Positions 1 to 35,672 of a DNA stretch of 54,706 nt are shown piece by piece (position 1 is the stretch's first letter; each line of letters begins with the position of its first letter). Under the pieces are notes generated by a model that saw only the letters and a list, made by a program, of their open reading frames with translations, had not been told where the DNA came from and searched no databases. The translations under genes were made by a program, and so were the position numbers. The DNA comes from a virus (lineage: Duplodnaviria > Caudoviricetes), in the IMG/VR virus record IMGVR_UViG_3300037419_001325, positions 1 through 54,706 of that record, one strand, 5' to 3'.

Positions 1-1399
1 GCAAGATCGGTTCGAGGGTGGGGAACAGGGTAGCGTCGCGGCGCACCTGATCGGTGGCCCACCGCACCCAGCCCTCGCGTGTCGTCAGGTCGTATCCATC
101 CGAGTCCGCGTTCATCCCCAGTTCGCGAAGGTAGGCATCGGAGTTGACCAGGCCATCAGTGAAAGCGTTGCGCACCTTGTCGATCTGGTCCGGTTCGGCT
201 TCCACGTCGGAGGTGTCGTACCAGACGACCACCTCGGCGCCGTCTGGCAGCATCGGCCGCAGCAGTTCAGTGGTGAGGGCCGCGCAGATGGTTTCCATCT
301 CCGGCGCCGCGTGCCACCGGACCGCTTCCTCCTCGACGCCGTAGAGGCTCCAATGGTTCAGGTCAGCCAGCCCGAGTAGGACTTCGGGCGGCATGTCGAG
401 GGTCATCGCGAGGCGGCCGACCGCTTTCTCCCGCGCGGCTTGCGCCTTGTCGCTGACCTCGCTGTCGAACTTGATGTGCTGGATCTTGTCGATGTGCTCG
501 CCGGCCACCTGGATGATCAGCGGCACCAGGGCCGCCGCGCTCGACGGGTCGCTGATCGCGGTCGACATCGCTTCCTGCAACTGCACCCGCAGCTCGTCAG
601 CGGTGACGAACATATTCGGCATCGGCCCCGCAGGAAGATTCGGTGCGTCCGGATCGGTGGCGCCGGTGGGTGCGGGGCGCTGGGACATCGAGATTTCGTT
701 GGGCAGAACCAGCATCCCGTTACCGGCCTGCCTCGACTTGCCGGCCGCTTCGATGTTCTGCGACATGCGCACGATTTCCCGCAGGATCGGCAGCGCCGCT
801 TTCACCGGGGACCACGCCTGCCACGACCGGCGAGGGTCGGGCCGCCAAATGCGGGAGATCGTGTCGACTTTCGGCACCATCAGGTATTTGGTGCCGTCCT
901 GCAACGTGAGTTCCACGGTTTCGCCGCGGGCTTTCACCTCATCGTTGGACAGGATGTGCCACTGCTCCTCCCCATCCGGGTAGATGATGACCAGCCAGCC
1001 TTCGCCTGGGATCATCAGCAGCGGGGCGAGTTTCGACAGCATCTGTGACTGCCCGGTAGCGCCGCCAGCGATCCGGCGCACGATCTCTTGCGCGAGCGCG
1101 TTATCGGTGGTGCCGGTAGGTTTCCCTGTGTCGGGGTCGATGTCGGATGCGACCAACCGGAACCGGCTGAGGAGCGCGGTCTTCCACAGCAGCGCGAACG
1201 ACAGCTCACCGACGAGTTCCAGCATCGACCAGGCTTCGTCCTGCCACTTCCCGGCGTCCCCGGATTGAGGTTTGACGAGTTTGCCCCACTTCGCTGGCGG
1301 GACAGCGACCGCGGCGGCGGTGAGCGCGGACAGTCCGGTATCCACCTGCGGCTCGGTGGTGTCCGCGGTGGGCTTGCTGCGCCGCCAAATCATGCTCAT
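1..1399 (-). CDS. Phage portal protein (3' end truncated by window edge)
   Basis: Not in ORF track because it runs off the edge. Hand translation from ATG 1399: MSMIWRRSKP...KWQDEAWSMLELVGELSFALLWK...RFRLVASDIDPDTGKPTG...IWRPDPRR...SPVKAALPILREI, resembling cluster-B-like actinophage portals; preceded by late promoter motif. Confidence 0.85.
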   Translation of the reverse strand, partial: MSMIWRRSKPTADTTEPQVDTGLSALTAAAVAVPPAKWGKLVKPQSGDAGKWQDEAWSMLELVGELSFALLWKTALLSRFRLVASDIDPDTGKPTGTTDNALAQEIVRRIAGGATGQSQMLSKLAPLLMIPGEGWLVIIYPDGEEQWHILSNDEVKARGETVELTLQDGTKYLMVPKVDTISRIWRPDPRRSWQAWSPVKAALPILREIVRMSQNIEAAGKSRQAGNGMLVLPNEISMSQRPAPTGATDPDAPNLPAGPMPNMFVTADELRVQLQEAMSTAISDPSSAAALVPLIIQVAGEHIDKIQHIKFDSEVSDKAQAAREKAVGRLAMTLDMPPEVLLGLADLNHWSLYGVEEEAVRWHAAPEMETICAALTTELLRPMLPDGAEVVVWYDTSDVEAEPDQIDKVRNAFTDGLVNSDAYLRELGMNADSDGYDLTTREGWVRWATDQVRRDATLFPTLEPIL

Positions 1400-5046: not shown

Positions 5047-5528
5047 GCTGATACCGGTTCCGTGGTGCGGGCGCCGGCACCGAGGGCCCATGTCACCAAA
5101 TCCACCACCTGCTGTGCGTGGGCGCGGCAGGACACTTCGACGGTGACGACACGGCGGGCGACTCCGGGCATGGACAGGGGCGGGTCGTAGAGGTTGACGG
5201 ACCAGGGTTCGGAGTCGCTGTCGTGGAAGAACGGTCCGGCGAGGAAGTAGCCGTCCGCGGTTTTGCAGGTGCGTCCCATGACCTGGACGAGGGGGTTGAT
5301 GGTGGCAGCGCAGATGACGTCGTGGGGGTCGATGTCGCCGAGGAGTCGCCGGTAGATGGAGTCGGCGGTTTCGTGGGTTTGGAATGCGGCTTGGTAGCCG
5401 TCGTTCCAGTGCTGCCAGGCCGGGTTGTTGTCGGAGGGTTCGTGGTTGAGGTAGTCCATCACTTCGGCGTCGGCGTTGATGACGGCGTGGGCGGCGGCGA
5501 GTTGTTCGGGGGTGTAGATGATGGTCAT
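5043..5528 (-). CDS. Hypothetical protein (behind two-hairpin leader)
   Basis: AGGAG RBS, ATG 5528. Confidence 0.75.
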   Translation of the reverse strand: MTIIYTPEQLAAAHAVINADAEVMDYLNHEPSDNNPAWQHWNDGYQAAFQTHETADSIYRRLLGDIDPHDVICAATINPLVQVMGRTCKTADGYFLAGPFFHDSDSEPWSVNLYDPPLSMPGVARRVVTVEVSCRAHAQQVVDLVTWALGAGARTTEPVSA

Positions 5529-5568
5529 GTCCAGCTCCTCTGGATAGGTGCCAGCTTGTTCTGGCGAT
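5529..5568 (-). ncRNA. Two-hairpin leader copy 1 (no obvious promoter)
   Basis: ATC-GCCAG-AACAAG-CTGGC-ACCTAT-CCAG-AGGAG-CTGG-AC-ATG. Confidence 0.7.
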
Positions 5569-5578
5569 GAATAGGGGG

Positions 5579-6039: not shown

Positions 6040-6269
6040 AGGTTGCTCCCGTGGCCGGGGGCGCGGCAGTCGGGGCGCTCGCAGTCCGGGCAGTAGATGA
6101 TGGGGGAGGCTTCGTCACCGCAGTTGGGGCAGAACGCGATCCAGTCCTCACCGATCAGCCACAACGGGATAGCGCAGTTGAGGCAGCGGTGGGTGGGTTC
6201 ACGGTCGCCGCCGGTGGCGATGAGTCCGGTTGCGCCGTCGAGGGTTTCGCGGCAGATGGTGTGGGGCAT
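6036..6269 (-). CDS. Small Cys-rich zinc-finger-like protein
   Basis: CLNC, CPNC, CPDC motifs; first gene after promoter and leader. Confidence 0.7.
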   Translation of the reverse strand: MPHTICRETLDGATGLIATGGDREPTHRCLNCAIPLWLIGEDWIAFCPNCGDEASPIIYCPDCERPDCRAPGHGSNL

Positions 6270-6342
6270 TACCGGCCTTCCGGTTCGTGCCAGCTGTTCT
6301 GGCGATACGGTCGACTATACCAGCGAACGACTGTATAAACAA
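6270..6342 (-). promoter_or_regulatory. sigA-type promoter plus two-hairpin leader copy 2
   Basis: TTGTTT-N17-TATAGT then ATC-GCCAG-AACAG-CTGGC-ACGAA-CCGG-AAGG-CCGG-TA-ATG. Confidence 0.8.
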
Positions 6343-7073: not shown

Positions 7074-7457
7074 TCACTGAGCCTCGGCAGCTTCCTGGTC
7101 GGCGTCGCAGCCGGGGCAGGAATCGGTCAGGTAGTAATCGTGCGGGCACAACGTCACCGAGGCGAGCCGCCGACCGCGACCGCTGATGAAGTAGTCGGGA
7201 TACGCCCGGATGTCATCCTTGACGATCGGTCGGGCCAGGACCTCGGCGGGCGGTGCGGGGATCGTCTTGTGCCGCTCGAAGTTCGCGCGCACTTCGCCGA
7301 TGGTCCAGTCGCCGAGCGGCACGTTGCAGGTGACGCACTGGGCTCGGACGCGGGTGCGTCCGAACAGGATGCCTGGCCGTGTGATGAGCACGCAATCGTC
7401 GTTCAGGCGTGTGGCCAGGCGGGTGATGTCATCCTGATTGGGAGTGGGTTCGGTCAT
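7074..7457 (-). CDS. Hypothetical protein with Cys motifs (behind leader)
   Basis: CVTC, CPH, CPGC; ATG directly after leader. Confidence 0.75.
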   Translation of the reverse strand: MTEPTPNQDDITRLATRLNDDCVLITRPGILFGRTRVRAQCVTCNVPLGDWTIGEVRANFERHKTIPAPPAEVLARPIVKDDIRAYPDYFISGRGRRLASVTLCPHDYYLTDSCPGCDADQEAAEAQ

Positions 7458-7530
7458 GTCCGGCCTTCCGGTTGATGCCAGCTGATCTGGCGATAACGTC
7501 GACTATACCAGCACGGGACTGTACCGTCAA
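7458..7530 (-). promoter_or_regulatory. sigA-type promoter plus two-hairpin leader copy 3
   Basis: TTGACG-N17-TATAGT (-35 overlaps TerL stop); GCCAG-ATCAG-CTGGC, CCGG-AAGG-CCGG. Confidence 0.85.
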
Positions 7531-9086
7531 TGGATGCCATCAGGCATTTGGCCCCAGCTGCCAGGGTTGCGGGACGCCACAGTCTGCCCACCACCCGCCA
7601 GCTCGTCATACACGATCGTTCCGCCAGCCACCCGATCCGGTTGGTGTTGGCCCTCGAACCAGCGGATAGCGTGCGCCTCCATCGTCGCCAACCGATGCTG
7701 CACCACCCGCGCCCGACCATTCGACGTAGCGTGACGGAACCCTGTCGACCGGATCAGCGCGTTACCCTGCCGCTTCCACGGCCGAATATGGAACGGGCGA
7801 GATGCCGGTACCGGGATGTTGTCGACATAGCCGCCGTTCGTGGCGGCTTCAGTGGCGAGGTCTTCATACGCGCGTTTCAGCAGCCGATCGTAAGCGACCG
7901 CAGCGGAATAGGCTTCGTACACCAGATCGGTGGCGCCGGTTTTCAGTGCGAGCAGGCAGGCGCGGCGCGGCCATTCGGCTGAGGAGTATTGGCCGGACCA
8001 GTCATCGGTGAGGACCACTATCCCGTCAGCGGTGAGACCGCCGGCGATGATGCCCGCTTCGTCGCCTTGCCCTGTTTCGGCGGGGTCGACACCAACGATC
8101 CGCCGATAGAACGGGGGGACTGTTTCGAGGCGGTAGGTGTCGAACCAGGCGGCGTTGAACAGTCCACCATCGGCGGGGGTGGGGGAGCCTTGGTACATGC
8201 TGGACCAGACGCGGGCGGGTTTGGTGGCGCGGATGTGTTCCCAGTCGGTTCGGCCGCGCGGGTTCTCCAAATGCACGCCAGGCGCGCGGCCGAGGGAGTC
8301 GAGGACGCCGTGTTCGGCGATGGCGGGGAAGTTGAGGACCCGCCACCGTCCGGGTTCCTGTTCCATCAGGTAGGCGTGCGCGTCCTGCTCATTCCAACGC
8401 GTGCCGATCATGATGCAGGGCGCGTCCGGGCCGAGGCGTTGAGATGCGACGGTGTCCCACCACAGATTCACCCGCCGGCGTTCGGCAGGGGAATCGGCAG
8501 CCAGCATGCCTGCATAGAGGTCATCGAGGATCATGCAATCGGCTGGCCGGCCAGGCAGTGCGGTGCCTACGCCCGCTGCGAGGATGCCGCCGCGGTGCCC
8601 CGACAGTTGCCAGCGTGCGCCTGCCGACTTGTCGCCGATACCCAACCCGAGGCGGTCGGGCAGCGGGTGGCCAGTCATCGCGTCGCGGGCGCCGGTGCCG
8701 AACGTGCGGAGGATGGTGCGGATCTGCTCCGAATGGGTGCGGGCCAGGTCCTCGGAATGGGTGGCGACGATGATCCGCCAATCCGGATGCAACTGGAGCG
8801 CCCGCACCGCCCCCCACACCGCGGTCCGTAGCGACTTCCCGGTCTGGGATGGTTTGGAGATCATCAGACGCGCAGCCGGGGTGGAGAACGCCCACTCCAG
8901 CGCGTCATCGATCATGCGGAGGTCGGCGGTTTGCACGGTGGTGGGGTCGAGTGCTTGCGCGAGAGAGCCGGCGGATGGGTAGGTGCGGGCGATCTGGACC
9001 CTGGTGAGGTTTTGTCGCGCCCACGCGGTGAACGCGGCTCGCTCACCGGGCGGTAGCTTCGCCGCCCGCGCCCACACATCAGTCAT
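7527..9086 (-). CDS. terL: Terminase large subunit
   Basis: Walker A PSQTGKS, Walker B MILDD, coupling GTRW, RNase H-like IVGVDPA nuclease domain. Confidence 0.92.
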   Translation of the reverse strand: MTDVWARAAKLPPGERAAFTAWARQNLTRVQIARTYPSAGSLAQALDPTTVQTADLRMIDDALEWAFSTPAARLMISKPSQTGKSLRTAVWGAVRALQLHPDWRIIVATHSEDLARTHSEQIRTILRTFGTGARDAMTGHPLPDRLGLGIGDKSAGARWQLSGHRGGILAAGVGTALPGRPADCMILDDLYAGMLAADSPAERRRVNLWWDTVASQRLGPDAPCIMIGTRWNEQDAHAYLMEQEPGRWRVLNFPAIAEHGVLDSLGRAPGVHLENPRGRTDWEHIRATKPARVWSSMYQGSPTPADGGLFNAAWFDTYRLETVPPFYRRIVGVDPAETGQGDEAGIIAGGLTADGIVVLTDDWSGQYSSAEWPRRACLLALKTGATDLVYEAYSAAVAYDRLLKRAYEDLATEAATNGGYVDNIPVPASRPFHIRPWKRQGNALIRSTGFRHATSNGRARVVQHRLATMEAHAIRWFEGQHQPDRVAGGTIVYDELAGGGQTVASRNPGSWGQMPDGIH

Positions 9087-9089
9087 AGG

Positions 9090-9491
9090 TCAGCCCTGCG
9101 CCCACTCAGGCCGGTAATCCGGGTGATCAGACCACACTGCGGCGATATCGCGGTACATCAGATCGTCCGTGTACGCCCCGGTCTCTCGGCCGATGTAGCC
9201 GAGGTCGCTGGCGCGGTCACGCTCGTACTCCCCAACCTCCTTGGCGTGTCCCAGCATGGCGCGGAGCATGGCGCATTGCTGGAGTACGCGGGCGGGATCG
9301 TGGCGCGCCATATGGTGCGCCCACCCCAGCGGGACGACTTTCCCGATGAGTTCCGGGCGATCTTCCGACGTCCACAGGTTCCAGCCGTCGACTTGCCAGC
9401 GGTCGGCGCCGGGCGCACTGGTCCGGCCCGCCTGGCGGGCAATTGTCTCGTCCTCGTCCAGGCGGGCGCGGATGAAGTCCACTATGTTCAC
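9090..9491 (-). CDS. DUF6221-like protein
   Basis: FIRARLDEDE...ARHDPARVL...WSDHPDYRPEW signature. Confidence 0.75.
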   Translation of the reverse strand: MNIVDFIRARLDEDETIARQAGRTSAPGADRWQVDGWNLWTSEDRPELIGKVVPLGWAHHMARHDPARVLQQCAMLRAMLGHAKEVGEYERDRASDLGYIGRETGAYTDDLMYRDIAAVWSDHPDYRPEWAQG

Positions 9492-9494
9492 GGT

Positions 9495-9761
9495 TCAGCC
9501 CTCATTCCAGTTCTCGGCCACGTGCTCCTCGAGGTGGGCTTGCGCGAGCCGATCCATCTCGACCAAACCCCGCAAACGAGTAGCGCCCAACACCTTGTCG
9601 TGCCGCCATTCCATCGGCAGCAGCCAGTCACACCCGGCGTGCGGGCAGCCCTTCGCGGAGTGCACATACTCGCCTGGCTGTAGGGGTGCGTCGAGGTCGC
9701 CAAAACCGTGGCGGACCATGTCTGCGGCGGCCTGGTTGATGTAGTCGTGGAGGTCGGCCAC
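9495..9761 (-). CDS. Hypothetical protein
   Basis: Tightly packed operon ORF. Confidence 0.65.
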   Translation of the reverse strand: MADLHDYINQAAADMVRHGFGDLDAPLQPGEYVHSAKGCPHAGCDWLLPMEWRHDKVLGATRLRGLVEMDRLAQAHLEEHVAENWNEG

Positions 9762-9764
9762 AGG

Positions 9765-9953
9765 TCAGCCCTCCCGTCGATCCACGACGAAATTGCCATC
9801 CTCGAGCAGTCCGAGGTACGCCCGGATTTCGGGGGCGTCAGCCGAGACCGGCGGGGTGTCGGGGAACTCGATACGGCCCATGTCACTGCGCCACCCGGAC
9901 CACTGCCTGCCGTGCTCGTCGGTGAACTCCATACGCTCGATATCGGACATCAC
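9765..9953 (-). CDS. Hypothetical protein
   Basis: Tightly packed operon ORF. Confidence 0.6.
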   Translation of the reverse strand: MMSDIERMEFTDEHGRQWSGWRSDMGRIEFPDTPPVSADAPEIRAYLGLLEDGNFVVDRREG

Positions 9954-9959
9954 TCACCC

Positions 9960-10373
9960 TCAGTTGTCGAACCAGAACACGATGCGGGTCGCCGCTTGCT
10001 CGCCGAGCAACCTCAGCCGGTCCAGCTCGGCGAAGTACGCGTCCCCCAGGAACTCCCGGTACGTCAACGCATCGGGTGAGGGCGGCTGACAAGCCGCGTC
10101 GTAGTCGAATCCCGTCAGCTCCTTCAGCGACAGCCACGACACGCTGTGCCCATCCGAACCCCACGCCTCCACCTGGGCGCGCACCTGGTCCGACACGTCA
10201 TCCGGTAGGCCGCGAGGTTCCGCGATCGGCTGAATGTCGGTGTAGTTGCGCACGCCAGCGAGCCACGCGAACAGGTTGTAGTTCCGGAAGTCGAACAGCT
10301 CGAAGTGCGGCACCGACTCCCAGCGGCCGGACGGCGTCTGGCACTCGATGGTGGTGTGGATGTCGCAACCCAT
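9960..10373 (-). CDS. Conserved phage protein (MGCDIH...WFDN family)
   Basis: MGCDIH, RNYNLFAWLAGVRN, PRGLP, HSVSWL, RIVFWFDN. Confidence 0.75.
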   Translation of the reverse strand: MGCDIHTTIECQTPSGRWESVPHFELFDFRNYNLFAWLAGVRNYTDIQPIAEPRGLPDDVSDQVRAQVEAWGSDGHSVSWLSLKELTGFDYDAACQPPSPDALTYREFLGDAYFAELDRLRLLGEQAATRIVFWFDN

Positions 10374-10663
10374 CAGCCCTCCCCGTACGGATCGTTTCGG
10401 GACTTGCTGTCGATCCTGTCGAAACAGGTCGGGCACATCTGCCCACCTCGGCCTACATGACCCTCACGGCATATCTGACACAACCGAGGCGGGATCTCCA
10501 CCAGCTCGCCACCGGTGACCTTCCAACAGTCACGGGTACCGTCCGGGTGGTCGACGGTGAGGATGTGGCCGTTGAGTCCGTCCAGGGGTGGGCGGTCGGT
10601 GAAGGTGTCGCGTTGGACCCAGTCGACAGACCAGGTAGCCCATGGGTGTGCGGTATCGGCCAT
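10373..10663 (-). CDS. Hypothetical protein, C-terminal Zn finger
   Basis: CQIC...CPTC; TGATG coupling. Confidence 0.65.
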   Translation of the reverse strand: MADTAHPWATWSVDWVQRDTFTDRPPLDGLNGHILTVDHPDGTRDCWKVTGGELVEIPPRLCQICREGHVGRGGQMCPTCFDRIDSKSRNDPYGEG

Positions 10664-11013
10664 CAGTTGTCCTTGTCGTCTCGCGTCAGCGTCTCGCCTC
10701 CGAGCGCGTTGCTGATGGCTGCATTCAGGTCAGCCAAGCGAGCCTCTGCGGCGGCCACCTCGTCCTTAAGCCTCTCGTTGGTCAGCGCCAGGCGCGTCTG
10801 TTCGCTACGAAGTTTCTGCGTCTCTGATCGGAGCTCAGCCTGGCTCAACTGTTCGATGTCGAGATAGGCGTCACTGCTCCAATCGACCGTTCTGGCACGA
10901 ATCGGCGTGAACACCAACTGATCATCGGAGACGACCAGGACGAAACCGCGATCGTCCGTCAGCTCGTCGATCGCGGCACACAATTGGCGCTTCATATCGT
11001 CACGAAGACTCAT
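10663..11013 (-). CDS. Hypothetical coiled-coil protein
   Basis: Heptad-rich C-terminal half; TGATG coupling. Confidence 0.65.
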   Translation of the reverse strand: MSLRDDMKRQLCAAIDELTDDRGFVLVVSDDQLVFTPIRARTVDWSSDAYLDIEQLSQAELRSETQKLRSEQTRLALTNERLKDEVAAAEARLADLNAAISNALGGETLTRDDKDN

Positions 11014-11387
11014 CAGTCGTCCTTGTCGTCTTCCGGAAACACGGGTTCTATCCGCGGGTCACGCCGCATCCCCTCCGCCACAATCCGCTGCCACCACCTG
11101 TTCGGAGGCAACTCGTCCTTCCGGGTACGCCACACCCGAACTCGAACCTTGTCCCCGCCCTCGGGCACGGTCGCCATGAACTCGGCCACTTCACGATCGA
11201 ACCGTTCGAACAGGGCCTCGATCTCCGCCCAAATACCTGTCGGGATCGGGTCGCGCCCGGATTCCCACGACTGGTACGTGTTCGGGCGGACACCCAGCAT
11301 TTCCGCCATATCCACCTGCTCCAGGCCCAAGTATCGGCGGGATGCGGTCAATCGGCCGGCGCGTCCGTGTTCGCGTGCGGTGGGCAT
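11013..11387 (-). CDS. HTH protein of Aca2/YdiL (DUF1870)-like family
   Basis: RRYLGLEQVDMAEMLGVRPNTYQSWESGRDPIP HTH followed by VRVRVWRT...WWQRIVAE segment matching DUF1870 layout; GAAAGGGAG RBS. Confidence 0.7.
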   Translation of the reverse strand: MPTAREHGRAGRLTASRRYLGLEQVDMAEMLGVRPNTYQSWESGRDPIPTGIWAEIEALFERFDREVAEFMATVPEGGDKVRVRVWRTRKDELPPNRWWQRIVAEGMRRDPRIEPVFPEDDKDD

Positions 11388-11485
11388 AGACTCCCTTTCG
11401 TCCAGCACGGCCGCTGCTCGACCGTGCTGGGCACCATGATCACACGCTCTGCGGAGTGATCGTGGGGTGAGGGAGCGGCGTGGGG

Positions 11486-11857
11486 TCACGCGGCGATCCG
11501 GGTGGGCATGTCCACGCGGTCAGCGGTGTCCGCCAGGTGGGGGTGGACGAACCGCAGGTAGTTGCGGCACACCTTCACCGTGATGGTCTCGAACTCGTCG
11601 GTGTTCGCGGACATGAGCAGGGTGTTGATGTAGTCGCCTGCGATGCCACCGGCCAGGGTGCGGTCGGTGGTGAGGTAGCAGCCCTCTTCCCAGTCGTAGG
11701 TGTCCCACTGGACCTCGACAGCGCCGGGCTGTCCGGTCTCCTCGCACATGGCGTTGTCCCAACCGGTGTTGGTTACCTCGATGCGGATGCGCTCATCGGC
11801 TTGGATGCCCAGCGCTTCGGCGATCGCGGCGGCGGGGGTGGCGATGAAAGTGGTCAT
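11486..11857 (-). CDS. Small acidic protein upstream of Aca2-like gene (anti-defence candidate)
   Basis: 123 aa, D/E-rich, first gene behind promoter and leader. Confidence 0.75.
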   Translation of the reverse strand: MTTFIATPAAAIAEALGIQADERIRIEVTNTGWDNAMCEETGQPGAVEVQWDTYDWEEGCYLTTDRTLAGGIAGDYINTLLMSANTDEFETITVKVCRNYLRFVHPHLADTADRVDMPTRIAA

Positions 11858-11932
11858 GTCCGGCTCCTCCGGTGTTGTGCCAGCTGGTCTGGCGATACGG
11901 TCGACTATACATGCGAGTGATGGTGTTGTAAA
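11858..11932 (-). promoter_or_regulatory. sigA-type promoter plus two-hairpin leader copy 4
   Basis: TTTACA-N17-TATAGT; GCCAG-ACCAG-CTGGC, CCGG-AGGAG-CCGG-AC-ATG. Confidence 0.85.
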
Positions 11933-11978
11933 GCGAAACAGCCGCCCAACCATGATCGGTTGAGCGGCTGCCTGGGGG

Positions 11979-12203
11979 TTACGCTTCGCCCCAGTCGTAG
12001 CCCCGCTGGTACGCCTCATCTGCGACATCCTCGGGGACTCCGACACGTTCGGCGGTGGCGAAGGCTCGTTCGATCGCGGCCACCGTGTCCGGGGTGTCGG
12101 GGTAACCGTCTTCGGCTTCCTTCCGGGCCAGGCTGCCGATGCTGACCAGCGCGGAAATGGCGGCATCGAGGGTGGTTGCGGGGGCGGGGGTGATGGTGAG
12201 CAT
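11979..12203 (-). CDS. Small acidic hypothetical protein (behind leader)
   Basis: 74 aa, ATG directly after leader. Confidence 0.75.
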   Translation of the reverse strand: MLTITPAPATTLDAAISALVSIGSLARKEAEDGYPDTPDTVAAIERAFATAERVGVPEDVADEAYQRGYDWGEA

Positions 12204-12275
12204 GTCCGGCCTTCCGGTTGATGCCAGCTGTTCTGGCGATACGCACACTATACCAGCAAGCGACTGTACCGTCTA
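12204..12275 (-). promoter_or_regulatory. sigA-type promoter plus two-hairpin leader copy 5
   Basis: TAGACG-N17-TATAGT; GCCAG-AACAG-CTGGC, CCGG-AAGG-CCGG. Confidence 0.85.
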
Positions 12276-12295
12276 GTGAATGCGTCGGGCCGGCA

Positions 12296-12625
12296 TCACC
12301 CCGACGTGTGCCAGACGCACGGCCAATCCGGCACCCGATCCCGCATCTCCCGCAACACCCCGAGGAAGCCGTCATAGTTGCCCCAGCCGTTCGGCGGGTT
12401 CATGGCCCGAAACCGGTCCGGGTCAGCCTCCAGGCCCTCGATGATCCTGCCCAGGAACGCGGCGCCCGCCTTGCCCTCCATGCCGTCGAGGATTCGCCAC
12501 CAGGACTGCCCGGTGTCGTCGTCGGGATGGATGACCGAGTTCGCCATGTCGTTGGTGTTGTGGGTGTAGTCCCACCAGCCCTCTTGGTGGCCGCGGTCAT
12601 CGATCAGAGTTGCGTCCCAGCTCAT
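12296..12625 (-). CDS. Conserved phage hypothetical protein
   Basis: YTHN...NPPNGWGNY motif. Confidence 0.7.
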   Translation of the reverse strand: MSWDATLIDDRGHQEGWWDYTHNTNDMANSVIHPDDDTGQSWWRILDGMEGKAGAAFLGRIIEGLEADPDRFRAMNPPNGWGNYDGFLGVLREMRDRVPDWPCVWHTSG

Positions 12626-15041: not shown

Positions 15042-15232
15042 AGTGCCACCGCCAGGGAGAACAGGGTCACGGCGACGATCCAGGTGACGACGGTGGCGGC
15101 GAGTCCGACAGCGACCGCGAGCGGCAGGACGAAGATCACGGTGAACAGCGACAGGCCCATCAGGAGCAGGGGGATTTCGACGCTGATGCGAGCCCGCGCT
15201 ACGGTGAATCGGTTGGGGTGTTTGATGTGCAT
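15038..15232 (-). CDS. Small membrane protein (behind leader)
   Basis: MHIKHPNRF start, long hydrophobic C-terminus. Confidence 0.7.
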   Translation of the reverse strand: MHIKHPNRFTVARARISVEIPLLLMGLSLFTVIFVLPLAVAVGLAATVVTWIVAVTLFSLAVAL

Positions 15233-15307
15233 TCCGGCTCTTTTCCGGTTGGTGACGGCTGTTCCGTCGATGTGGGTAACGATACCAGCGGGTGACTGTG
15301 TTGTCAC
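15233..15307 (-). promoter_or_regulatory. sigA-type promoter plus two-hairpin leader copy 6 (covariant)
   Basis: GTGACA-N17-TATCGT; ATC-GACGG-AACAG-CCGTC-ACCAA-CCGG-AAAAGAG-CCGG-A-ATG. Confidence 0.8.
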
Positions 15308-24104: not shown

Positions 24105-24352
24105 CAGCGGGCCGAGTTGCGGAAAGCGTCGGAGACGATCGCCATCAGATGGTTGGCGCGGGCCACGATCGCCTCGGCGTCGGCTTCCGCGATGTCGCTC
24201 AGACCGGGCCGACGCCAGGCAGCCGACGATTCGAACCGGGTCGCGAGGTGGTCGGTCACCAGGTGCCGGGCGAGCATGTCGATGGTCGCGACACGATCGT
24301 GCGCCATTGCGTGGGTGACGTATGCGCCGATATCGGCGGTGGGTGAACTCAA
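24104..24352 (-). CDS. Hypothetical protein (behind leader, TTG start)
   Basis: AGGAG RBS inside leader hairpin 2. Confidence 0.7.
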   Translation of the reverse strand: MSSPTADIGAYVTHAMAHDRVATIDMLARHLVTDHLATRFESSAAWRRPGLSDIAEADAEAIVARANHLMAIVSDAFRNSAR

Positions 24353-24427
24353 TTCCGGCTCCTATCCGGGTGATGCCAGCTGATCTGGCGATGGCTTGAA
24401 TATACCTGCGTTCGCAGGTGCGGTCAA
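24353..24427 (-). promoter_or_regulatory. sigA-type promoter plus two-hairpin leader copy 7
   Basis: TTGACC-N17-TATATT; spacer holds IR ACCTGCG-TT-CGCAGGT; GCCAG-ATCAG-CTGGC, CCGG-ATAGGAG-CCGG. Confidence 0.85.
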
Positions 24428-25311: not shown

Positions 25312-25803
25312 TCAGAACAGGGGCAGGGTGTCGATGTGGGCGAGGGGCCGGCGCCGGGTGCGGGGTGGGTGGACGACGATCACCGAGGGGGGACAGGGCT
25401 GGTCGGCGAGTCGCCGCATTTCGGCCAACTGTCCGATGAGCCGGTTTTCGGAGTCGCGGAGCCGGTCGCGGTCCGCCATGAGCTGGTTCATGGCGTCGGG
25501 GGTGACGCGGGAGGCACGAACCTTGCTCTCCGCCTTCTCCACTGCCGCCTCGGCGGCCAGCAACTGGGTGGTGAGGACGGCTACGGGTTCGGTGCGGGCC
25601 ATTTGGATGGTGCGGCGGGACACATGGAGCCATGCGGCGATGGTGTCGGTGGTGTGACCGCGGTGGGTGAGGTGAGCGACCAGCCATGCCCGGTCGCTGG
25701 CGGGGAGTTTCACGCCCTGGACACGCCCAGCTATCGCGGCGTCGATCAAGCATTCATCCGGGTTCCAACGGGGCTGGTGCATGGGCAGGACGGTCACGGT
25801 CAC
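25312..25803 (-). CDS. HTH plus coiled-coil protein
   Basis: RGHTTDTIAAWLHVSRRTIQ HTH. Confidence 0.65.
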   Translation of the reverse strand: MTVTVLPMHQPRWNPDECLIDAAIAGRVQGVKLPASDRAWLVAHLTHRGHTTDTIAAWLHVSRRTIQMARTEPVAVLTTQLLAAEAAVEKAESKVRASRVTPDAMNQLMADRDRLRDSENRLIGQLAEMRRLADQPCPPSVIVVHPPRTRRRPLAHIDTLPLF

Positions 25804-26813
25804 CTCCGGGTAGCGGTTACGGGGGCTGTACGGGCCATGGCCGGGCCAGAAAGGTCCGGCGGAGGGGTGGCGCTGTATCGGCGCGGCTTCGACGCGAGAG
25901 CGGCACGTACCTTGGCGGCGCCGCGGCGCGCGGTCTCCGCTGCGTGCGGGTCGTGGAGGCACTTCACCGCGGGAGCGCTGAATCCGTCGTCGTCGCACAT
26001 GCCGCACGCGGCGATCTCGTCGGCTTCGGCGCGGTGCTTCGCGGCCAGCTGTTCACGTTCGGCGGCGGCGCGGGCGTGGGCGGCGCGTTCCTCCCATGCT
26101 TTGCGTTCCAACCGGTTCGCCTTGCATCGACCGCACGCGACATCACCGGGATTGCCGGGATGGTCCGGGCACCACGGAGCCGGAGCCTCGTCGGTGGTTT
26201 CGATCGGATCTGCAGCGAGGGGGGTGGGGTTATCCACAGGCTCGGCGAGCGGCAAGTGAGGTACCCCGGAAACGCAACCCCCCTCTAGTTCAACTTGGTC
26301 TAGTTCCCCTGGGTTTAGTTTGAGGGACAAATCTGTCCCCCGGGGGGAGACAGATTTGTCGCCACCCCGGGGGACAGATTTGTCTCCCCCTTCACTCGGG
26401 GCCACGTCAGAAGGGGCGACAGATTTGTCCCCCCCTCCCACAAACGAAGCCGGCGGAAGGGACCGCAGGGTGTACAGCGAGCTCGTCTGCTCTGGATGGG
26501 TAGCGGACTTCTCGAACGAATACGACGGATTCGAGCCCGCGCTCTTCCACCGCAGACGCACCGTCACCGCACCCGCGGCCACGAGGTCCCGCATCGCACG
26601 ATCCAGTGTCTTCACGCTCCACCGGCACTCCTCGGCCAGCGTCTTCCGTTTACACCAGGACGTGCCAGAGGCGTTGTCGGCGTGCTGGCGCAGCACCACA
26701 TACAGGCGCAGGGCACGGTCAGTGATCAACTCGCACTGCGTCACCCACAGCGGAATCATCGTGAATCGCACATCGACGGAGATGCCGATCTCGTCGTCGT
26801 GGGTGTGGCTCAT
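25800..26813 (-). CDS. Replication initiator (winged-HTH Rep-like)
   Basis: FTMIP...ALRLYVVL...KRKTLAEECRWSVKTLDRAMRDL; internal iterons; C-terminal CPDH/CGRC/CGMCDDDG. Confidence 0.75.
   Translation of the reverse strand: MSHTHDDEIGISVDVRFTMIPLWVTQCELITDRALRLYVVLRQHADNASGTSWCKRKTLAEECRWSVKTLDRAMRDLVAAGAVTVRLRWKSAGSNPSYSFEKSATHPEQTSSLYTLRSLPPASFVGGGDKSVAPSDVAPSEGGDKSVPRGGDKSVSPRGTDLSLKLNPGELDQVELEGGCVSGVPHLPLAEPVDNPTPLAADPIETTDEAPAPWCPDHPGNPGDVACGRCKANRLERKAWEERAAHARAAAEREQLAAKHRAEADEIAACGMCDDDGFSAPAVKCLHDPHAAETARRGAAKVRAALASKPRRYSATPPPDLSGPAMARTAPVTATRR
26230..26429. repeat. Putative replication origin inside rep
   Basis: DnaA box TTATCCACA 26230-26238; TAGTT x3 at 15-bp spacing 26286-26320; GACAGATTTGTC at 26349, 26373, 26418 and inverted at 26326. 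Confidence 0.75.
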
Positions 26814-26864
26814 TTCCGGCTCCAATCCGGTTGGTGCCAGCTGACTGGCGATGACTTGATGATA
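26814..26864 (-). promoter_or_regulatory. Two-hairpin leader copy 8 with -10 TATCAT (weak -35)
   Basis: GCCAG-TCAG-CTGGC, CCGG-ATTGGAG-CCGG-AA-ATG. Confidence 0.75.
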
Positions 26865-27627: not shown

Positions 27628-27992
27628 CAGAACTCACCCCGCCCCGCCACCTTGTACGCCTCGCGGGTCGACGCTCCGACCGACTGCCAAGCGCGGAGCT
27701 CGCTTTCGAGCGCCTTCGCCAGACGATCGGCATACCGATATGCCACCTCGGCGATATCCCGAGCCCGACGTTGGTCCTTGGTCGCCAGGACAGCCCGCGA
27801 CTTCTTCGTGTGCGCGGGACCGTCGCAGTTGTCGGACGCCTCGTGAAACGCCCACTCATACTCACGATCCGCCTCGAGGAATGCGTCGTACCGGTCGGCG
27901 CACACCTTGACCGATGCGGCGATCCGATTCGCTACGTCGTGGATCGCACGCTCGATCTGCACCGGCGAGAACGCCTCGGTGTTCTCACTCAT
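27627..27992 (-). CDS. Conserved helical phage protein
   Basis: SPVQIE...ELRAWQSVGAS. Confidence 0.7.
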   Translation of the reverse strand: MSENTEAFSPVQIERAIHDVANRIAASVKVCADRYDAFLEADREYEWAFHEASDNCDGPAHTKKSRAVLATKDQRRARDIAEVAYRYADRLAKALESELRAWQSVGASTREAYKVAGRGEF

Positions 27993-28605
27993 AGGCGATG
28001 GCCGCCATCTCGCGGTCGTACTCCGCCTGATAGTCGTCGCCGTGGTCGGTCTCGTCGTTGCCGAGGGAGACCTGCTTCTCCACGCCGTCCTGCACATCGA
28101 CCGGCGGCGTGGCCGCTGAGGCGGCAGGCATCACCAATGTGCCCCGGACCAGCGCCGACAACTGCCCCTTGTTGTAGAGCGACAGCCCGAACTGATCACC
28201 CAGGTTGATCGCGGTCCGCTTCTTCGCCAACGAGATCGAAGACTTGTACGCGAGATCGTGCGCGTCGCCGCGGGTTTGGTTCTGCGCCGTCGCTGTCGAA
28301 CCATCCTCGTAGTGCGCCAACTCGTTGCCGTCAGCATCACGGATGGTGAGCCGGACCAGCGCCCGGTAGCAGACATCCCACCGGCCAGTCGGGCGGTCGC
28401 CATTCATGCGCGGGTCCTCGAACACGAGGCTCACGTTCAGGACCTCGACGTCGAACGAGCAGAACCCGAACACCCGGATCAGGTGCGCGGTCACGTCCTG
28501 CTGCGAAACGTGGGAGTGGCCCTTGCCGTCCTCCAGGACGCGGTTCTCGTTGATCGGCCGGAGCAGCTGATCGACCTGCCGCGCGGTCAGTTTCGCCACG
28601 CTCAC
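27985..28605 (-). CDS. Rad52/Sak-like single-strand annealing protein
   Basis: LIRVFGF, YRALVRLTI, AYKSSISLAKKR..INLGDQFGLSLY. Confidence 0.8.
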   Translation of the reverse strand: MSVAKLTARQVDQLLRPINENRVLEDGKGHSHVSQQDVTAHLIRVFGFCSFDVEVLNVSLVFEDPRMNGDRPTGRWDVCYRALVRLTIRDADGNELAHYEDGSTATAQNQTRGDAHDLAYKSSISLAKKRTAINLGDQFGLSLYNKGQLSALVRGTLVMPAASAATPPVDVQDGVEKQVSLGNDETDHGDDYQAEYDREMAAIAYE

Positions 28606-29171: not shown

Positions 29172-29248
29172 GGCGATTGATTCCCTTTCGTTTGTTGGTT
29201 GGGGCCCGCACCTGGTTGAGTCAGGTGCGGGTTTCGTCTTTTTGGGGG

Positions 29249-29560
29249 TCATTGCAGTTCGGGGTCTGGCGGCCAGACGATCTCCGAGGACCGCTGGATT
29301 ACCGCTGTCGCGCCGTAGCTTTCGAGGAGTCGTTGCAAGCGACGCGCCGACGCGCGTGACCTCCACTCGCGCTCGGTGCTCGGCCAGAAGAACGACGACC
29401 CGGTGTCACGGCCGTACAGCGCAACCCACCTCGGGTGCGGGTCCCAGCCTTCCGGCTCCCAATCCGGGTTGATCTCCATCAGGTCAGGGCAATACGAGGT
29501 CGGCCTCAATGCGCCCTCGGGGTACTTCGCGATACGGACGCGATAGAGGTAGTGCTTCAC
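29249..29560 (-). CDS. Hypothetical protein
   Basis: GTGA-coupled ORF. Confidence 0.65.
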   Translation of the reverse strand: MKHYLYRVRIAKYPEGALRPTSYCPDLMEINPDWEPEGWDPHPRWVALYGRDTGSSFFWPSTEREWRSRASARRLQRLLESYGATAVIQRSSEIVWPPDPELQ

Positions 29561-30432
29561 GCGCCCAGCTCTTTCATGTCGTCGTCGGTGATCAGCACCA
29601 GGCCGGTGGAGTGCTGGTTGACCGGAAGCCCCTCGGCCGCCAACGCATCCCGCAGGGCGATCTCCATTTGCGGGCGGACACGGGGCACGAACCGACGACG
29701 GCCGCCGTAGGTCCCCTGGTCGTGGGCGTAGAAGTAGGCTCGCCCCTTCGCGGTCGGCTTGCGATGGTCGTAGCCGTCAGCGGTGCTGCCGTCCGGCCGC
29801 ACGCGGGTGTTGTGCTGGTTGATCAGGTATCCGTGGTCGTAGAGGTGCTTCTCGAAATCGGTCTTGCGGACCGATGAGAAGTACTTCTTCCCGAACGTGG
29901 TGGGGTCGATACCGTCGCCGCCCTCGATCGCGGCCCGGTGCTTCTGCTCGGCGGCGAGCCGCTTCTCAGCCTTGTCGGCCCGGATGCGTTCGCCGCGAGC
30001 GATCTCGACCGCCTTGGCGACTCGCGCCGACTCGGCCTCGATGACAGCCAGCGGGTCGGACATGTCGATCGCTTCGGCCGCCTCGGCCTCGCGGGTGCGG
30101 ATCGCGAAATACGCCTGTGCCGCAGCGACTTGCGGCTTACGCGGGTCGCCGTTCATCGCGACGAGGTAGGCGGCGAATCGGGACAGGTGAACGTCTTCGC
30201 GCGGCTTCGTGCCCCCGTGGAGATTTTCCCGGAGCCGGGAAAATCCCTGATCGCGCCCTTGGTTGCGTGCGGTGACTTCCGCGCGGTCGATCGCGTCCGC
30301 GAACCGCTCCCACTTGTCGTACCCAAGGCGTGGTTGAAGATCGCGGGCGGACCAGTATTCGGAGCCGTCCGGACGGGTGCGTCGGATCGCGTCAAACGGC
30401 GATGCGGAGTGAGGGATCAGAGTATTGCTCAC
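29557..30432 (-). CDS. Phage antirepressor (BRO-like N-terminus, ANT/KilAC-like C-terminus)
   Basis: EYWSARDLQPRLGY.KWERF, MNGDPRKPQVAAAQAYFA, KPTAKG. Confidence 0.8.
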   Translation of the reverse strand: MSNTLIPHSASPFDAIRRTRPDGSEYWSARDLQPRLGYDKWERFADAIDRAEVTARNQGRDQGFSRLRENLHGGTKPREDVHLSRFAAYLVAMNGDPRKPQVAAAQAYFAIRTREAEAAEAIDMSDPLAVIEAESARVAKAVEIARGERIRADKAEKRLAAEQKHRAAIEGGDGIDPTTFGKKYFSSVRKTDFEKHLYDHGYLINQHNTRVRPDGSTADGYDHRKPTAKGRAYFYAHDQGTYGGRRRFVPRVRPQMEIALRDALAAEGLPVNQHSTGLVLITDDDMKELGA

Positions 30433-31773: not shown

Positions 31774-32334
31774 GTGAAATACGCAGGGGGAGTGGCTGTT
31801 GCCCTCATCGCCGCAGCAGCCGTCGCCGGATGCTCATCCGACGACAACACCACCGCCCACGCCGACACCAGCATCGGCACCCCAGCCAAGGCGCCGGCCA
31901 CCGCCGCGCCCATCCCGGTCACCATCGGTCAGCCGTTCCTGATCAGCAGTTCCAAGGGCACAACCGGACTGGTCACCGTCGACAAGATCGAGCTCAACCC
32001 GACCTGCACCACCAAGTTCGGTCCGGTCACCCCGCCAAAAGGCACCAACGTAGCCGTCGAACTGGACGTGCAAACCAACGCGATCCCACCCAGCACCTAC
32101 ATCACCGAAAACTGGTTCCAGGAACTCACCCCCGACGGCTACACCAAACGCCTGCCGATGGCCGACAACCTTTGCATCGCCGACCGCGAAGACATGGGCA
32201 CCCCCTACCAGCCGAACTCGAAGTATCACGGCTGGGTACTGCTCGATGTCTCCAATACCGCGTCCTCCCTGCTGATGTCGGACATCTACGACGGCCGCCC
32301 GGTCCCCGAGGTGCATCGCATCCCGATCAGCTGA
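31774..32334 (+). CDS. Lipoprotein in lysogeny module (superinfection-exclusion candidate)
   Basis: Lipobox VAGC; beta-rich C-terminal domain; sits between repressor and integrase. Confidence 0.7.
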   Translation: MKYAGGVAVALIAAAAVAGCSSDDNTTAHADTSIGTPAKAPATAAPIPVTIGQPFLISSSKGTTGLVTVDKIELNPTCTTKFGPVTPPKGTNVAVELDVQTNAIPPSTYITENWFQELTPDGYTKRLPMADNLCIADREDMGTPYQPNSKYHGWVLLDVSNTASSLLMSDIYDGRPVPEVHRIPIS

Positions 32335-33682
32335 GCCAGTCGATGTGGATGTCGTCCGGCTGAAACTCCGCGCCCTTGCGTGTCGGCCGGATGACGATCC
32401 GCATCAGCGCGGCCACCATCTCCCGCTGCCGATCCAACCCCGCAGCATCGAACGCGGCCTGTACATCGTCGGCGCCGATCACCCCCTCGAAGATCCTGGC
32501 CTTCTGCGAATCCGCCATCCGCGCCTCAATCTCCGCCAACTCCGTCGTCAGGCGTTTCGCCGTCTTCAACGCGAACGAAGCCATCATCTGATCGTCCTGC
32601 GTGAACTCCGCTTCCAGTGCTTCCAGCTTCCCGCGCAGCACAGCCGCTTTCGCACTCAACTCCCCAACCCCCTCCCGATCCCGGTCCACCAGCAGTTCTT
32701 TCGCGTCCGGCCGCGACAGGCGACCCACCACCAGGCCCGTAACGAACTTGTCCACCATCACCTGATTCCGGCCGATCCCATGACATTCACGGCAGATGTA
32801 CATGGTCGACTTCCATGCCGTCTGCCCAGACCCCAACGTCGTCCCGTCATCGCACTTGCCGCACAACGCCAACCCCGACAACAGGTACTTCCGGCCACCG
32901 CTGCCCGGCCGCCGCCGCTCCGGATCAGCCCGGATCGCGCACACAGCCCTCCACGTCTCCTCATCCACCAACGCCGGCCAATCGCCCTTACGCACGATCT
33001 CCCCGTTGTAGGCGAGCAGCCCAGCCAATTTCGGGTTCACCATGTACTGGGACACGGTCGGCCCCCGCCACTGATTCCCCACCGTGGTCGTCAAACCGGC
33101 GAGGTTCCATGCCTGCGCGATCGAACCGAACGACGAGCCTGCCAGGAACCGTTCGAACCCCTCCCGCGCCGCGGGCGCCTCTACCGGGTGGGGTTGCATG
33201 TCCTCGGTGTAGCCGAACAGTCGGCGGTTTCCCCACGGCTTCCCCGCCTCCGCGCGCTGCCGGTGAGATGCTTTCTGCCGCGCCGACTTCTGATCCATCT
33301 CCGCCCGCGCCACCGCGCCTTTGATACGTGCGTACAACCGACCATTGTGAGTAGCGAGGTCGATCTCACCGGTGACGGTGACGAGCATCAGCCCCTTCCG
33401 GTCCGCGAGATCGATGAACGTCTCCAACTCGGCCGGATGCCGGTGCAGCCGGTCCAGGTCCCACGCCACTACCGCGCCGATCTTCCCTTCCTGGATATCG
33501 GTGATCAGCTGTTGATACGCGGGCCGTGTGCCCTTCATCGCGGACCGGTCGTTGTCGATGTATTCGGTGGCGTCCCAACCGTGCTCGTCGCACTTCTCCC
33601 GGCATGGGCCGCGCTGGCGAGAGATGGCGAGCATGTTGCCTTCACGGTCGAGGGACTGGCGGAGGTAGATGGCTGCGTGCAT
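32327..33682 (-). CDS. int: Large serine integrase
   Basis: YLRQS catalytic motif, DLDRLHR, recombinase domain, Zn ribbon LLSGLALCGKC...YIC..C, coiled coil. Confidence 0.95.
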   Translation of the reverse strand: MHAAIYLRQSLDREGNMLAISRQRGPCREKCDEHGWDATEYIDNDRSAMKGTRPAYQQLITDIQEGKIGAVVAWDLDRLHRHPAELETFIDLADRKGLMLVTVTGEIDLATHNGRLYARIKGAVARAEMDQKSARQKASHRQRAEAGKPWGNRRLFGYTEDMQPHPVEAPAAREGFERFLAGSSFGSIAQAWNLAGLTTTVGNQWRGPTVSQYMVNPKLAGLLAYNGEIVRKGDWPALVDEETWRAVCAIRADPERRRPGSGGRKYLLSGLALCGKCDDGTTLGSGQTAWKSTMYICRECHGIGRNQVMVDKFVTGLVVGRLSRPDAKELLVDRDREGVGELSAKAAVLRGKLEALEAEFTQDDQMMASFALKTAKRLTTELAEIEARMADSQKARIFEGVIGADDVQAAFDAAGLDRQREMVAALMRIVIRPTRKGAEFQPDDIHIDWLS

Positions 33683-34192: not shown

Positions 34193-34257
34193 CATGGCCT
34201 CGCCATGTGGAGCAGCCACTGAATCAGCTGATACGCCAGCCACGGATTGACAATCAC
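34189..34257 (-). CDS. 22-aa micro-ORF
   Basis: GTGA overlap with endolysin stop; MIVNPWLAYQLIQWLLHMARPW. Confidence 0.5.
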   Translation of the reverse strand: MIVNPWLAYQLIQWLLHMARPW

Positions 34258-35495: not shown

Positions 35496-35502
35496 GGCGC
35501 GC

Positions 35503-35523
35503 ACGGTAGGCGGTGGGGGTGCA
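35503..35523 (-). promoter_or_regulatory. Late-type promoter motif copy 4
   Basis: TGCACCCC-N7-TACCGT, ATG 7 nt downstream. Confidence 0.75.
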
Positions 35524-35672
35524 ACCCTCGCGCGCGTACGCGGGTACGCGCACGAACGCGCGGCACTATCCGCGACGCTGCTGGTGCCGGGTAGTGACCT
35601 ACGCAGCATTGATGCCAGCTAACTACCCGTACGCGAGCATGTATGATCATGGCGTACGAAAGGAATCCAGCC

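Follow-up and report, generated by a model that had tools for sequence, protein, structure and literature searches.

A gene for a putative Aca2/DUF1870-type regulator among recurrent, SAS/ESAS-like promoter-leader cassettes of a temperate actinophage

The two described systems that come closest to the locus reported here are the Aca2-controlled operons and the SAS/ESAS elements of mycobacteriophages; both are cited from excerpts of the source papers, and the comparisons below reach as far as those excerpts do. In Aca2-controlled operons an inverted repeat lies over a strong sigma-70-like promoter (PMC6765145), and two hairpins in the 5′ untranslated region (UTR) enclose or block the ribosome binding site (PMC13551039). 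Aca2 is a dimer (PMC6765145) that has been reported to bind both promoter DNA and the 5′ UTR hairpins, and its motifs have been described upstream of several neighbouring operons and between genes, up to three of them clustered, with an "actino-motif" also reported (PMC13551039). The SAS of cluster K mycobacteriophages read GGG-N7-CCC around AGGAG and stand 3-7 nucleotides (nt) before starts, in one orientation and in the non-structural half of the genome; ESAS repeats have 17-bp arms, whose departures do not support RNA pairing in the excerpt of the 2011 description, which left the function of both elements open (PMC3203893). The locus in question occupies positions 11013-12275 of a 54,706-base viral sequence, IMG/VR record IMGVR_UViG_3300037419_001325 (~65% G+C, estimated completeness 89%), which was analysed at its full length and is called the window below. 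On the minus strand, two promoter-leader cassettes precede open reading frames (ORFs) of 74 and 123 amino acids (aa), here p74 and p123, followed by the gene for a 124-aa helix-turn-helix (HTH) protein. The locus is best classed as a new Aca2/DUF1870-type regulator set among promoter-leader cassettes that recur through the phage and form a system analogous to SAS/ESAS.

Profile and structure comparisons show that the 124-aa protein (11013..11387, minus strand) truly belongs to the Aca2/YdiL (DUF1870) fold family. It matches Pfam Aca2_YdiL (PF08965) at 26.8 bits against a cut-off of 23.8, with residues 12-88 falling on profile positions 5-83 of 118, and also matches HTH_31 at 27.0 bits; a Nocardia panacis homologue, 63% identical, is named "DUF1870 family protein" by NCBI. 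A PDB profile search with six homologues placed Aca2 (7ezy, 8w35, 7b5j, 7vjo) and YdiL (1s4k) among the best matches (E 1e-4 to 1e-3), the WESGR.P.P stretch of the HTH protein aligning with Aca2 7ezy. The AlphaFold2 model (pLDDT 84.4) contains the C-terminal strand-helix-strand, and the ten top-ranked Foldseek chains are all Aca2, YdiL or SO3848, aligned over 115-130 columns with TMq 0.60-0.73, while other XRE proteins match the HTH part alone (TMq ~0.38). In whole-length VIA-align comparisons the leading entries were 7ezy (Z 11.5, 111 residues, root-mean-square deviation 2.9), 2ox6 (11.3), 7vjq (11.3), 7b5j (11.2) and 1s4k (10.8); the Aca2, YdiL and SO3848 entries span 106-118 residues, and the rest reach at most Z 9.3 over 54-62 residues. 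A first-pass annotation of this DNA, made from sequence alone, had likened the WESGR.P HTH and the C-terminal strand and helix to Aca2/YdiL and proposed checking the fold against Aca2. The PF08965 match above cut-off, the 7ezy alignment and the AlphaFold2 model uphold that likeness, and the profile, AlphaFold2 and Foldseek searches all find the DUF1870 fold, whose absence the annotation had named as a ground for refuting its reading. The protein ends in a conserved acidic tail, IEPVFPEDD.

The full cassette, as read from the sequence, is predicted to consist of a sigma-70-like (sigma-A-type) promoter with a dyad in its spacer, followed by hairpin 1 (HP1) and then hairpin 2 (HP2). A few nt past the expected transcription start begins HP1, a 5-bp stem closed by a loop of 4-6 nt; in HP2 the stem is of 4 bp, the loop carries Shine-Dalgarno purines, and the hairpin closes 1-8 nt before the start codon. 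The cassette of p74 comprises a promoter at 12247..12275 (minus strand; TAGACG-17 nt-TATAGT, with TG ahead of the -10) and a leader at 12204..12243, in which HP1 (12237..12223) reads GCCAG-AACAG-CTGGC and HP2 (12217..12206) reads CCGG-AAGG-CCGG with the Shine-Dalgarno purines in its loop. The p123 operon has a promoter at 11904..11932 (minus strand; TTTACA-17 nt-TATAGT) and a leader at 11858..11898, with HP1 (11893..11879) GCCAG-ACCAG-CTGGC and HP2 (11872..11860) CCGG-AGGAG-CCGG. The two tandem strong promoter-plus-leader cassettes noticed at first pass are thus borne out, at 12275-12247 and 11932-11904, each with its leader copy. Between 5000 and 16000, four promoter-like sites, these two among them, were found against 1.5 +/- 1.1 in shuffled sequence, and all four abut a leader copy on its upstream side.

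These two leaders belong to a set that recurs along the window. The leader core CGTATCGCCAGANCAGCTGGCA occurs five times at up to three mismatches (0.01 expected), and a covariance model built from 35 leader copies recovers eight copies in the window at E <= 3e-16, the eighth of them found by the model itself. Each of the eight is a minus-strand copy with a start codon at its end; the model places them at 26811, 24350, 15230, 12201, 11855, 7455, 6267 and 5526, and every copy falls within 5.5-26.9 kb, 1-8 nt ahead of an ATG or TTG. A promoter was called for five of the eight and for three it was not. Beyond the two cassettes at the locus, the copies, all on the minus strand, are at 26811..26862, a leader copy heading a 337-aa replication-initiator homologue (25800..26813); 24350..24427 (promoter 24399-24427, spacer dyad ACCTGCG-AA-CGCAGGT), heading an 82-aa ORF; 15230..15307, a cassette with promoter in which HP1 has the other stem, GACGG/CCGTC, and which precedes a 64-aa membrane-like ORF; 7455..7530 (promoter 7502-7530), heading a 127-aa ORF directly after the large terminase gene (TerL); 6267..6315, heading a 77-aa zinc-ribbon-like ORF, where a -10 TATAGT is present but no promoter was called; and 5526..5576, a leader without a promoter and with the HP2 variant CCAG/CTGG, heading a 161-aa ORF. 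No Rfam family reached its gathering score anywhere in the window, and 11800-12320 gave only chance-level rows (E >= 0.7).

Minimum-free-energy folds contain both hairpins in all seven of the window copies that were folded. Across the window and five related loci the HP1 stem takes the forms GCCAG/CTGGC, GGCAG/CTGCC, GACGG/CCGTC and GAGGG/CCCTC, with complementarity kept, and the HP2 stem is CCGG/CCGG or CCAG/CTGG, individual copies reading CCGG-AAGG/AGGAG/ATAGGAG/ATTGGAG-CCGG or CCAG-AGGAG-CTGG. Two HP1 types coexist inside the window, and likewise two inside the related locus L008. When the leaders upstream of p123 orthologues were taken regardless of structure, a 5-bp stem was present in six of six, formed by three stem sequences. 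Because copies without a promoter lie between genes, the arrangement argues that the leader acts on the transcript. The first-pass annotation had tentatively extended its suggestion of new anti-defence proteins to the other leader-headed ORFs, and this part is not supported: the same cassette heads eight genes, the replication-initiator homologue among them, so the leader marks the first gene of a unit and not an anti-defence gene.

Some further features of individual cassettes were observed. The HP1 of the 15230-15307 copy, GACGG/CCGTC, is typical of the phages of L008, L012 and L015, while the other seven window copies carry GCCAG/CTGGC; either both stem types function in one phage or this cassette was acquired by recombination. 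The TerL stop codon falls within the -35 hexamer TTGACG of the next cassette, and the 69-nt spacer between TerL and the 127-aa ORF is exactly one promoter plus leader. Two promoter-spacer subtypes can be distinguished, GGTACAGTC-N5-GCTGGTATAGT at 12275, at 7530 and in the uncalled promoter region just 5′ of the 6267-6315 leader, and CCGCACC...GTATA(G/T)T at 11932 and 24427. Related phages have ACACAC...GTGTGT dyads in place of these subtypes, which may be operator classes.

Like ZF40 Aca2 and YdiL, the HTH protein has two domains, an XRE-type HTH at the N terminus followed by an alpha/beta domain at the C terminus, and it keeps the WESGR.P.P stretch and Q33 of Aca2. As in the Aca2 operons of the excerpted descriptions, its gene lies 3′ of small ORFs, and the near-consensus sigma-70 promoter (17-nt spacing), promoter dyad and hairpins around the ribosome binding site have their counterparts here; the likeness in control is one of layout as described there (PMC6765145, PMC13551039). 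The differences are considerable. Identity to Aca2 is only ~20-24%, and the profile alignment with 7ezy pairs Q33 with Q39 but places N36 opposite R30, with R34 two residues earlier. R30 is required for DNA binding in ZF40 Aca2 and Q33 is conserved (PMC6765145), roles that come from one studied member and are not family-defining. The HTH gene of the window stands in the middle of a nine-gene operon ending in TerL, in contrast to the last position of a two-gene operon, and there are eight cis elements over 21 kb rather than up to three clustered motifs (PMC13551039). No known anti-CRISPR (Acr) protein was recognised upstream of the HTH gene in searches that did not include a dedicated Acr library. 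The description of the locus as an acr-aca2-like operon can therefore be kept for its Aca2-like layout, as far as the excerpts describe it, and has to be dropped for the idea of an HTH gene closing a small operon, as this gene runs gap-free into TerL.

Likeness to the SAS elements is found in a short element with outer symmetry around an AGGAG-type core (here CCGG-N4-7-CCGG) a few nt before mostly ATG starts, and in many copies of single orientation restricted to the non-structural half, with eight of eight here on the coding strand. As with ESAS, a subset has an inverted repeat with a variable spacer just upstream, whose consensus varies by phage lineage. The window copies, however, fail the published consensus 5'-GGGATAGGAGCCC at up to two deviations, the closest, CCGGATAGGAGCCGG, sharing 11 of its 13 bases; the upstream repeat has 5-bp rather than 17-bp arms, and its variants keep base pairing, unlike the ESAS departures in the excerpt; and many of the copies here are fused to a sigma-70-like promoter. 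HP2 is thus an analogue of SAS and HP1 an analogue of the ESAS repeats, and because the consensus differs neither is taken as a member of the family.

Downstream of p123, the HTH gene is separated from TerL (7527..9086, minus strand) by six small genes (9090..11013, minus strand; 116, 96, 137, 62, 88 and 133 aa), the last of which is DUF6221 and the other five of which match PHROGs of unknown function or no family. The successive gaps from HTH to TerL are -1, -1, -1, 6, 3, 3 and 3 nt, and no credible terminator was found between these genes. Because the gaps are minimal and a terminator is lacking, the HTH gene is predicted to be mid-operon in a nine-gene unit, p123-HTH-six small genes-TerL, that is translationally coupled through to TerL as its final gene. 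The 98-nt spacer between p123 and HTH (11388..11485, minus strand) folds into two adjacent hairpins inside a CTCCCT/AGGGAG helix that pairs with the HTH Shine-Dalgarno sequence; it is conserved better than the flanking coding sequence, and nine of 32 predicted pairs are kept through double-sided changes. Since this fold pairs with the HTH ribosome binding site, it suggests that output of the HTH protein is low compared with that of p123.

Six related loci were compared (L007, L008 = L014, L012, L013 and L015), and every one of them has the gene order p123-HTH-TerL. In four of the six (L008/L014, L012, L015) ~40-240 nt separate the end of the HTH match from the beginning of the TerL match; the two are ~1-2 kb apart in the window, L007 and L013, with 1.9-2 kb of other genes intervening in the window and L007. 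L007 has other genes in place of the block at 9090-11013, and L008, L012 and L015 lack it, which makes it a hypervariable cargo island between conserved anchors. Upstream, p74 is present in three of the six loci (L007, L012, L013), other small leader-headed ORFs take its slot in L008 and L015, and in L007 a further gene, of 150 aa, lies between the two cassettes. As judged from these comparisons, p123, HTH and TerL behave as anchors and p74 and the 9090-11013 genes as exchangeable cargo, p123 looking like a core gene because the three-gene order is kept throughout.

p74 (11979..12203, minus strand; ATG at 12203, isoelectric point (pI) 4.05) is an orphan with six close relatives only. p123 (11486..11857, minus strand; ATG at 11857, pI 4.26) belongs to a small lineage-restricted family with invariant Cys38 and Pro44, which numbers 12 representatives at the 50% identity level among 1.84 billion proteins and was found in 5 of 401 genomes of the bacterial family sampled; its relatives were searched with the narrower of two alignments, the wider one having no conserved stretch. 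The middle of p123 is divergent (74% identity) beside a 99%-identical HTH protein. Neither p74 nor p123 has a family in Pfam, PHROGs or NCBIfam, the searches having included no dedicated Acr or anti-defence library, and tblastn found neither among 50,697 phage records. The structure model of p123 (pLDDT 76.8) has no credible match in the PDB, where Foldseek reached E 0.13 at best and the wide VIA-align comparison Z 3.8, or in BFVD (best E 0.035), and ESM Atlas look-alikes of p123 and p74 yielded nothing usable. Both proteins are accordingly orphans of the kind first supposed, p123 also by fold, and are lineage-restricted phage proteins. Their sizes, starts and acidity were likewise as first described. 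Acidity as a distinguishing mark was not: 11 of the 12 region proteins computed have a pI below 5.6, so this is the background of the phage and does not discriminate. The starts at 11387, 11857 and 12203 are set by the leaders and the AAAGGGAG Shine-Dalgarno sequence; longer forms, a 158-aa HTH protein from GTG 11489, a 226-aa p123 and an 89-aa p74, were rejected since the added N-terminal stretches show no protein-level conservation in L008 and L015. A predicted complex of two HTH copies with p123 scored 0.01 (mark 0.32) in a run without a control and is uninformative either way.

More distant relatives of the HTH gene were seen elsewhere. In L037 (G191:C18, 1231-2193) a distant 122-aa DUF1870-like gene has small acidic ORFs on both flanks, and the frames upstream of both flanking ORF starts share a ...GEQPQP.GKEP(D/E)M stretch. 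This suggests a conserved GGAGCC-type leader, and the arrangement has the look of a comparable cassette system in a further genome of the family. In L032 (G324:C5, 1447-1854) the genes on either side of a weak DUF1870-like match look chromosomal (judged by eye from the translations, an isoprenyl transferase and a RecO-type protein); the fold family therefore has non-phage members in these bacteria too.

The explanation that we favor is an Aca2-type feedback regulator within a phage-wide cassette system resembling SAS/ESAS, a reading that we consider evenly poised between right and wrong. In it, eight cassette copies would punctuate the early, replication and packaging genes, and the two adjacent ones would drive p74 and the operon p123-HTH-six small genes-TerL. 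By analogy with Aca2, the HTH protein would bind dyad DNA, hairpin RNA or both as a dimer, with the promoter-spacer dyads, HP1/HP2 and the hairpins of the p123-HTH spacer as candidate sites, and would exert feedback on the strong expression from the cassettes in the way that Aca2 acts on its own promoter and 5′ UTR; translation of HTH itself would be held low by the structured spacer pairing with its ribosome binding site. p123 would be a core partner of the HTH-TerL module, with p74 and the genes between HTH and TerL as exchangeable cargo. The fold, the promoter strength, the promoter-spacer dyads and the two-hairpin 5′ UTR speak for the feedback loop. Several observations weigh against it. 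Aca2 R30 aligns with N36 of the HTH protein, and across six loci the recognition helix of the latter shows no co-variation with HP1 stem, promoter dyad or spacer hairpin type: L012 has a window-like helix, PNTVQSWESGRD, yet GACGG hairpins and ACACG dyads, and L013 has a different helix, DKTVETWESGHT, yet GCCAG hairpins. The phage being temperate, its promoter dyads might just as well be prophage repressor operators; self-repression by the HTH protein would silence TerL too, a gene needed late; and the promoter-less leaders argue that the leader can work without a promoter-bound factor. The 35-copy alignment, moreover, was chosen by patterns that demanded perfect complementarity, and because of this its 100% pairing and zero G-U pairs are built in and only its stem variety is informative. 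The feedback reading can be enlarged to make the DUF1870/Aca2-type protein the master feedback regulator of a phage-wide regulon, which at each of the eight cassettes would bind the dyad as DNA and the leader as RNA and thereby set the dosage of replication, accessory and packaging genes. We hold this larger version to be distinctly improbable; if it were true, Aca2-style dual DNA/RNA control and the SAS/ESAS elements would be two faces of one mechanism.

The cassette could also be independent of the HTH protein, the dyads being operators of an immunity repressor and the leader a cis-acting stability or translation-initiation element like SAS/ESAS, in which a 5′ stem-loop protects the transcript and a hairpin presents the Shine-Dalgarno sequence, while the DUF1870 protein regulates something else. 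The phage is temperate, with a serine integrase and an Ant-like protein; its dyad and hairpin types track phage lineage and not the HTH recognition helix; promoter-less leaders occur between genes and after terminator-like hairpins; and the placement in the non-structural part, in one orientation and 1-8 nt from starts, is as described for SAS in the excerpt (PMC3203893), to whose consensus CCGGATAGGAGCCGG conforms at 11 of 13 bases. No repressor was identified, however, ORF 31774..32334 being without a family, and a two-hairpin 5′ UTR has also been described as Aca2-bound in the excerpted account (PMC13551039). An independent cassette is a serious possibility that we consider somewhat more probably wrong than right; it is also compatible with the feedback reading, the two not being mutually exclusive. 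The position of the HTH gene raises a different thought, that its product, possibly with p123, belongs to the terminase module as a small-terminase-like DNA recogniser or a late-operon activator. The p123-HTH-TerL order in six of six loci, the HTH gene directly before TerL in L008/L014, L012 and L015, and its translational coupling down to TerL in the window are consistent with this, as is its conserved acidic tail. Many temperate siphoviruses have late activators at the junction of replication and packaging genes, which is where this locus lies, and no recognisable small terminase was found near TerL; the closest phage TerL genes are annotated just "terminase", with no small subunit among the matches listed or in the one region viewed. 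Yet the HTH protein matched no small-terminase family in Pfam, PHROGs or NCBIfam, only HTH/XRE/Aca2-type families, and its whole-length fold matches are YdiL and Aca2, a dimer according to the excerpt (PMC6765145), and not ring-forming small terminases. Its mycobacteriophage homologues (phrog_955) are far from the terminase, beside tail and lysis genes, and other genes fill 1.9-2 kb between HTH and TerL in the window and L007. A packaging or late-gene role is on this evidence unlikely.

It was the adjacency of p74 and p123 to an Aca2-like gene that first led to their designation as anti-defence proteins. On that account one or both would inhibit a host defence (CRISPR-Cas, restriction or another), being produced in a burst from the strong promoters and then lowered by the Aca2-like protein. 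The Aca2 fold of the HTH protein agrees with it, as do the strong promoters and structured 5′ UTRs known from the excerpted account of Aca2 operons (PMC13551039), the small size and rarity of p74 and p123 and their lack of a known family. So do the variable slot upstream of p123, filled by p74 or other small ORFs and enlarged by the 150-aa gene in L007, the diverged middle of p123 beside a nearly identical HTH protein, and the distant DUF1870 genes of L030 and L037, which likewise follow small acidic ORFs. Against it, neither protein resembles any known protein (no dedicated Acr library was searched), their acidity is the proteome background, and the same cassette heads the replication initiator and the genes after TerL. 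The p123-HTH-TerL order is kept in all six loci, which makes p123 core-like, whereas the usual pattern is a swapped acr beside a conserved aca; the proposed neighbourhood analysis of homologues thus bore out a variable p74 slot but not an acr-like exchange of p123. Distant p123 homologues (G139, G191, G300) have no HTH or TerL gene within ~5 kb in any of the three loci, and Cas1 was found in only one of four host genomes carrying a relative. The fold and the orphan state of the small proteins therefore stand, while the step from adjacency to anti-defence is weakened by context and has gained no link from an assay or from homology. We regard anti-defence activity of this locus as doubtful, and such roles for p74 and p123 are improbable to a like degree; within this account the variable p74 slot and the HTH-TerL cargo are possibly more plausible sources than the conserved p123.

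This phage group offers a compact test case for the favored feedback reading, with an Aca2-fold protein, eight near-identical cassettes whose stems vary naturally in a compensatory manner, and lysogenic Nocardia strains in culture collections (the hosts of L012, L014 and L015). Were the protein to bind the cassettes, SAS-like elements would gain a mechanism and the role of Aca2-type regulators would widen past anti-defence operons. The locus also sounds a caution for guilt-by-association screens, as an Aca2-fold gene beside small orphan ORFs may sit in a conserved packaging module; since it can do so, adjacency alone over-calls anti-defence genes.

Among phages, the nearest family of the HTH protein is phrog_955, "HTH DNA binding protein" (E 9.6e-22), and tblastn gave 33-35% identity in 499 phage records. 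The family is that of cluster B mycobacteriophages and Tsukamurella phage TPA2, and the TerL of the window is also nearest to cluster B. It differs in that in Vincenzo and TPA2, the two viewed, the gene lies between lysis and tail genes away from the terminase, and is followed by a second small DNA-binding gene (AlpA-like in Vincenzo) with neither p123 nor p74. The window TerL is ~42% identical to terminases of cluster B mycobacteriophages and of Rhodococcus phage Tonitrus. The distance of ~6 kb from TerL to the portal gene (2..1399, cut off by the contig end, with profile positions 18-462 of 620 matched) is filled with small genes, and in Tonitrus a dozen small genes likewise lie between terminase and portal. 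Tonitrus gene 9, annotated as HTH, was considered as a homologue of the HTH protein and rejected, as it gave no tblastn match. No near-identical DNA to the window was found among the 50,697 phage records.

Nearly all genes of the window with coding-type third-position G+C lie on the minus strand. A recombinase/DNA-repair-type protein (27985..28605), the Ant-like protein (29557..30432), the serine integrase (32327..33682) and an endolysin (34254..35609) are encoded beyond the replication-initiator homologue, and because it has the integrase and the Ant-like protein the phage is a temperate siphovirus-type actinophage. The host is probably a Nocardia, since close homologues of the locus proteins sit in Nocardia species (N. 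panacis, N. cerradoensis, N. nova, N. miyunensis and N. pulmonis). ORF 31774..32334, one of the few plus-strand ORFs of coding-type composition, adjoins the serine integrase; neither Pfam nor PHROGs gives it a family, its sole NCBIfam row is a lipoprotein far below threshold (16.8 bits against a cut-off of 105), and it might be an immunity repressor or lysogeny gene. The only strong terminator-like site within 16-32 kb is on the plus strand at 29200-29236, where the Ant-like gene and a 254-aa ORF flank a G+C-rich hairpin of 17 pairs with a T run after it.

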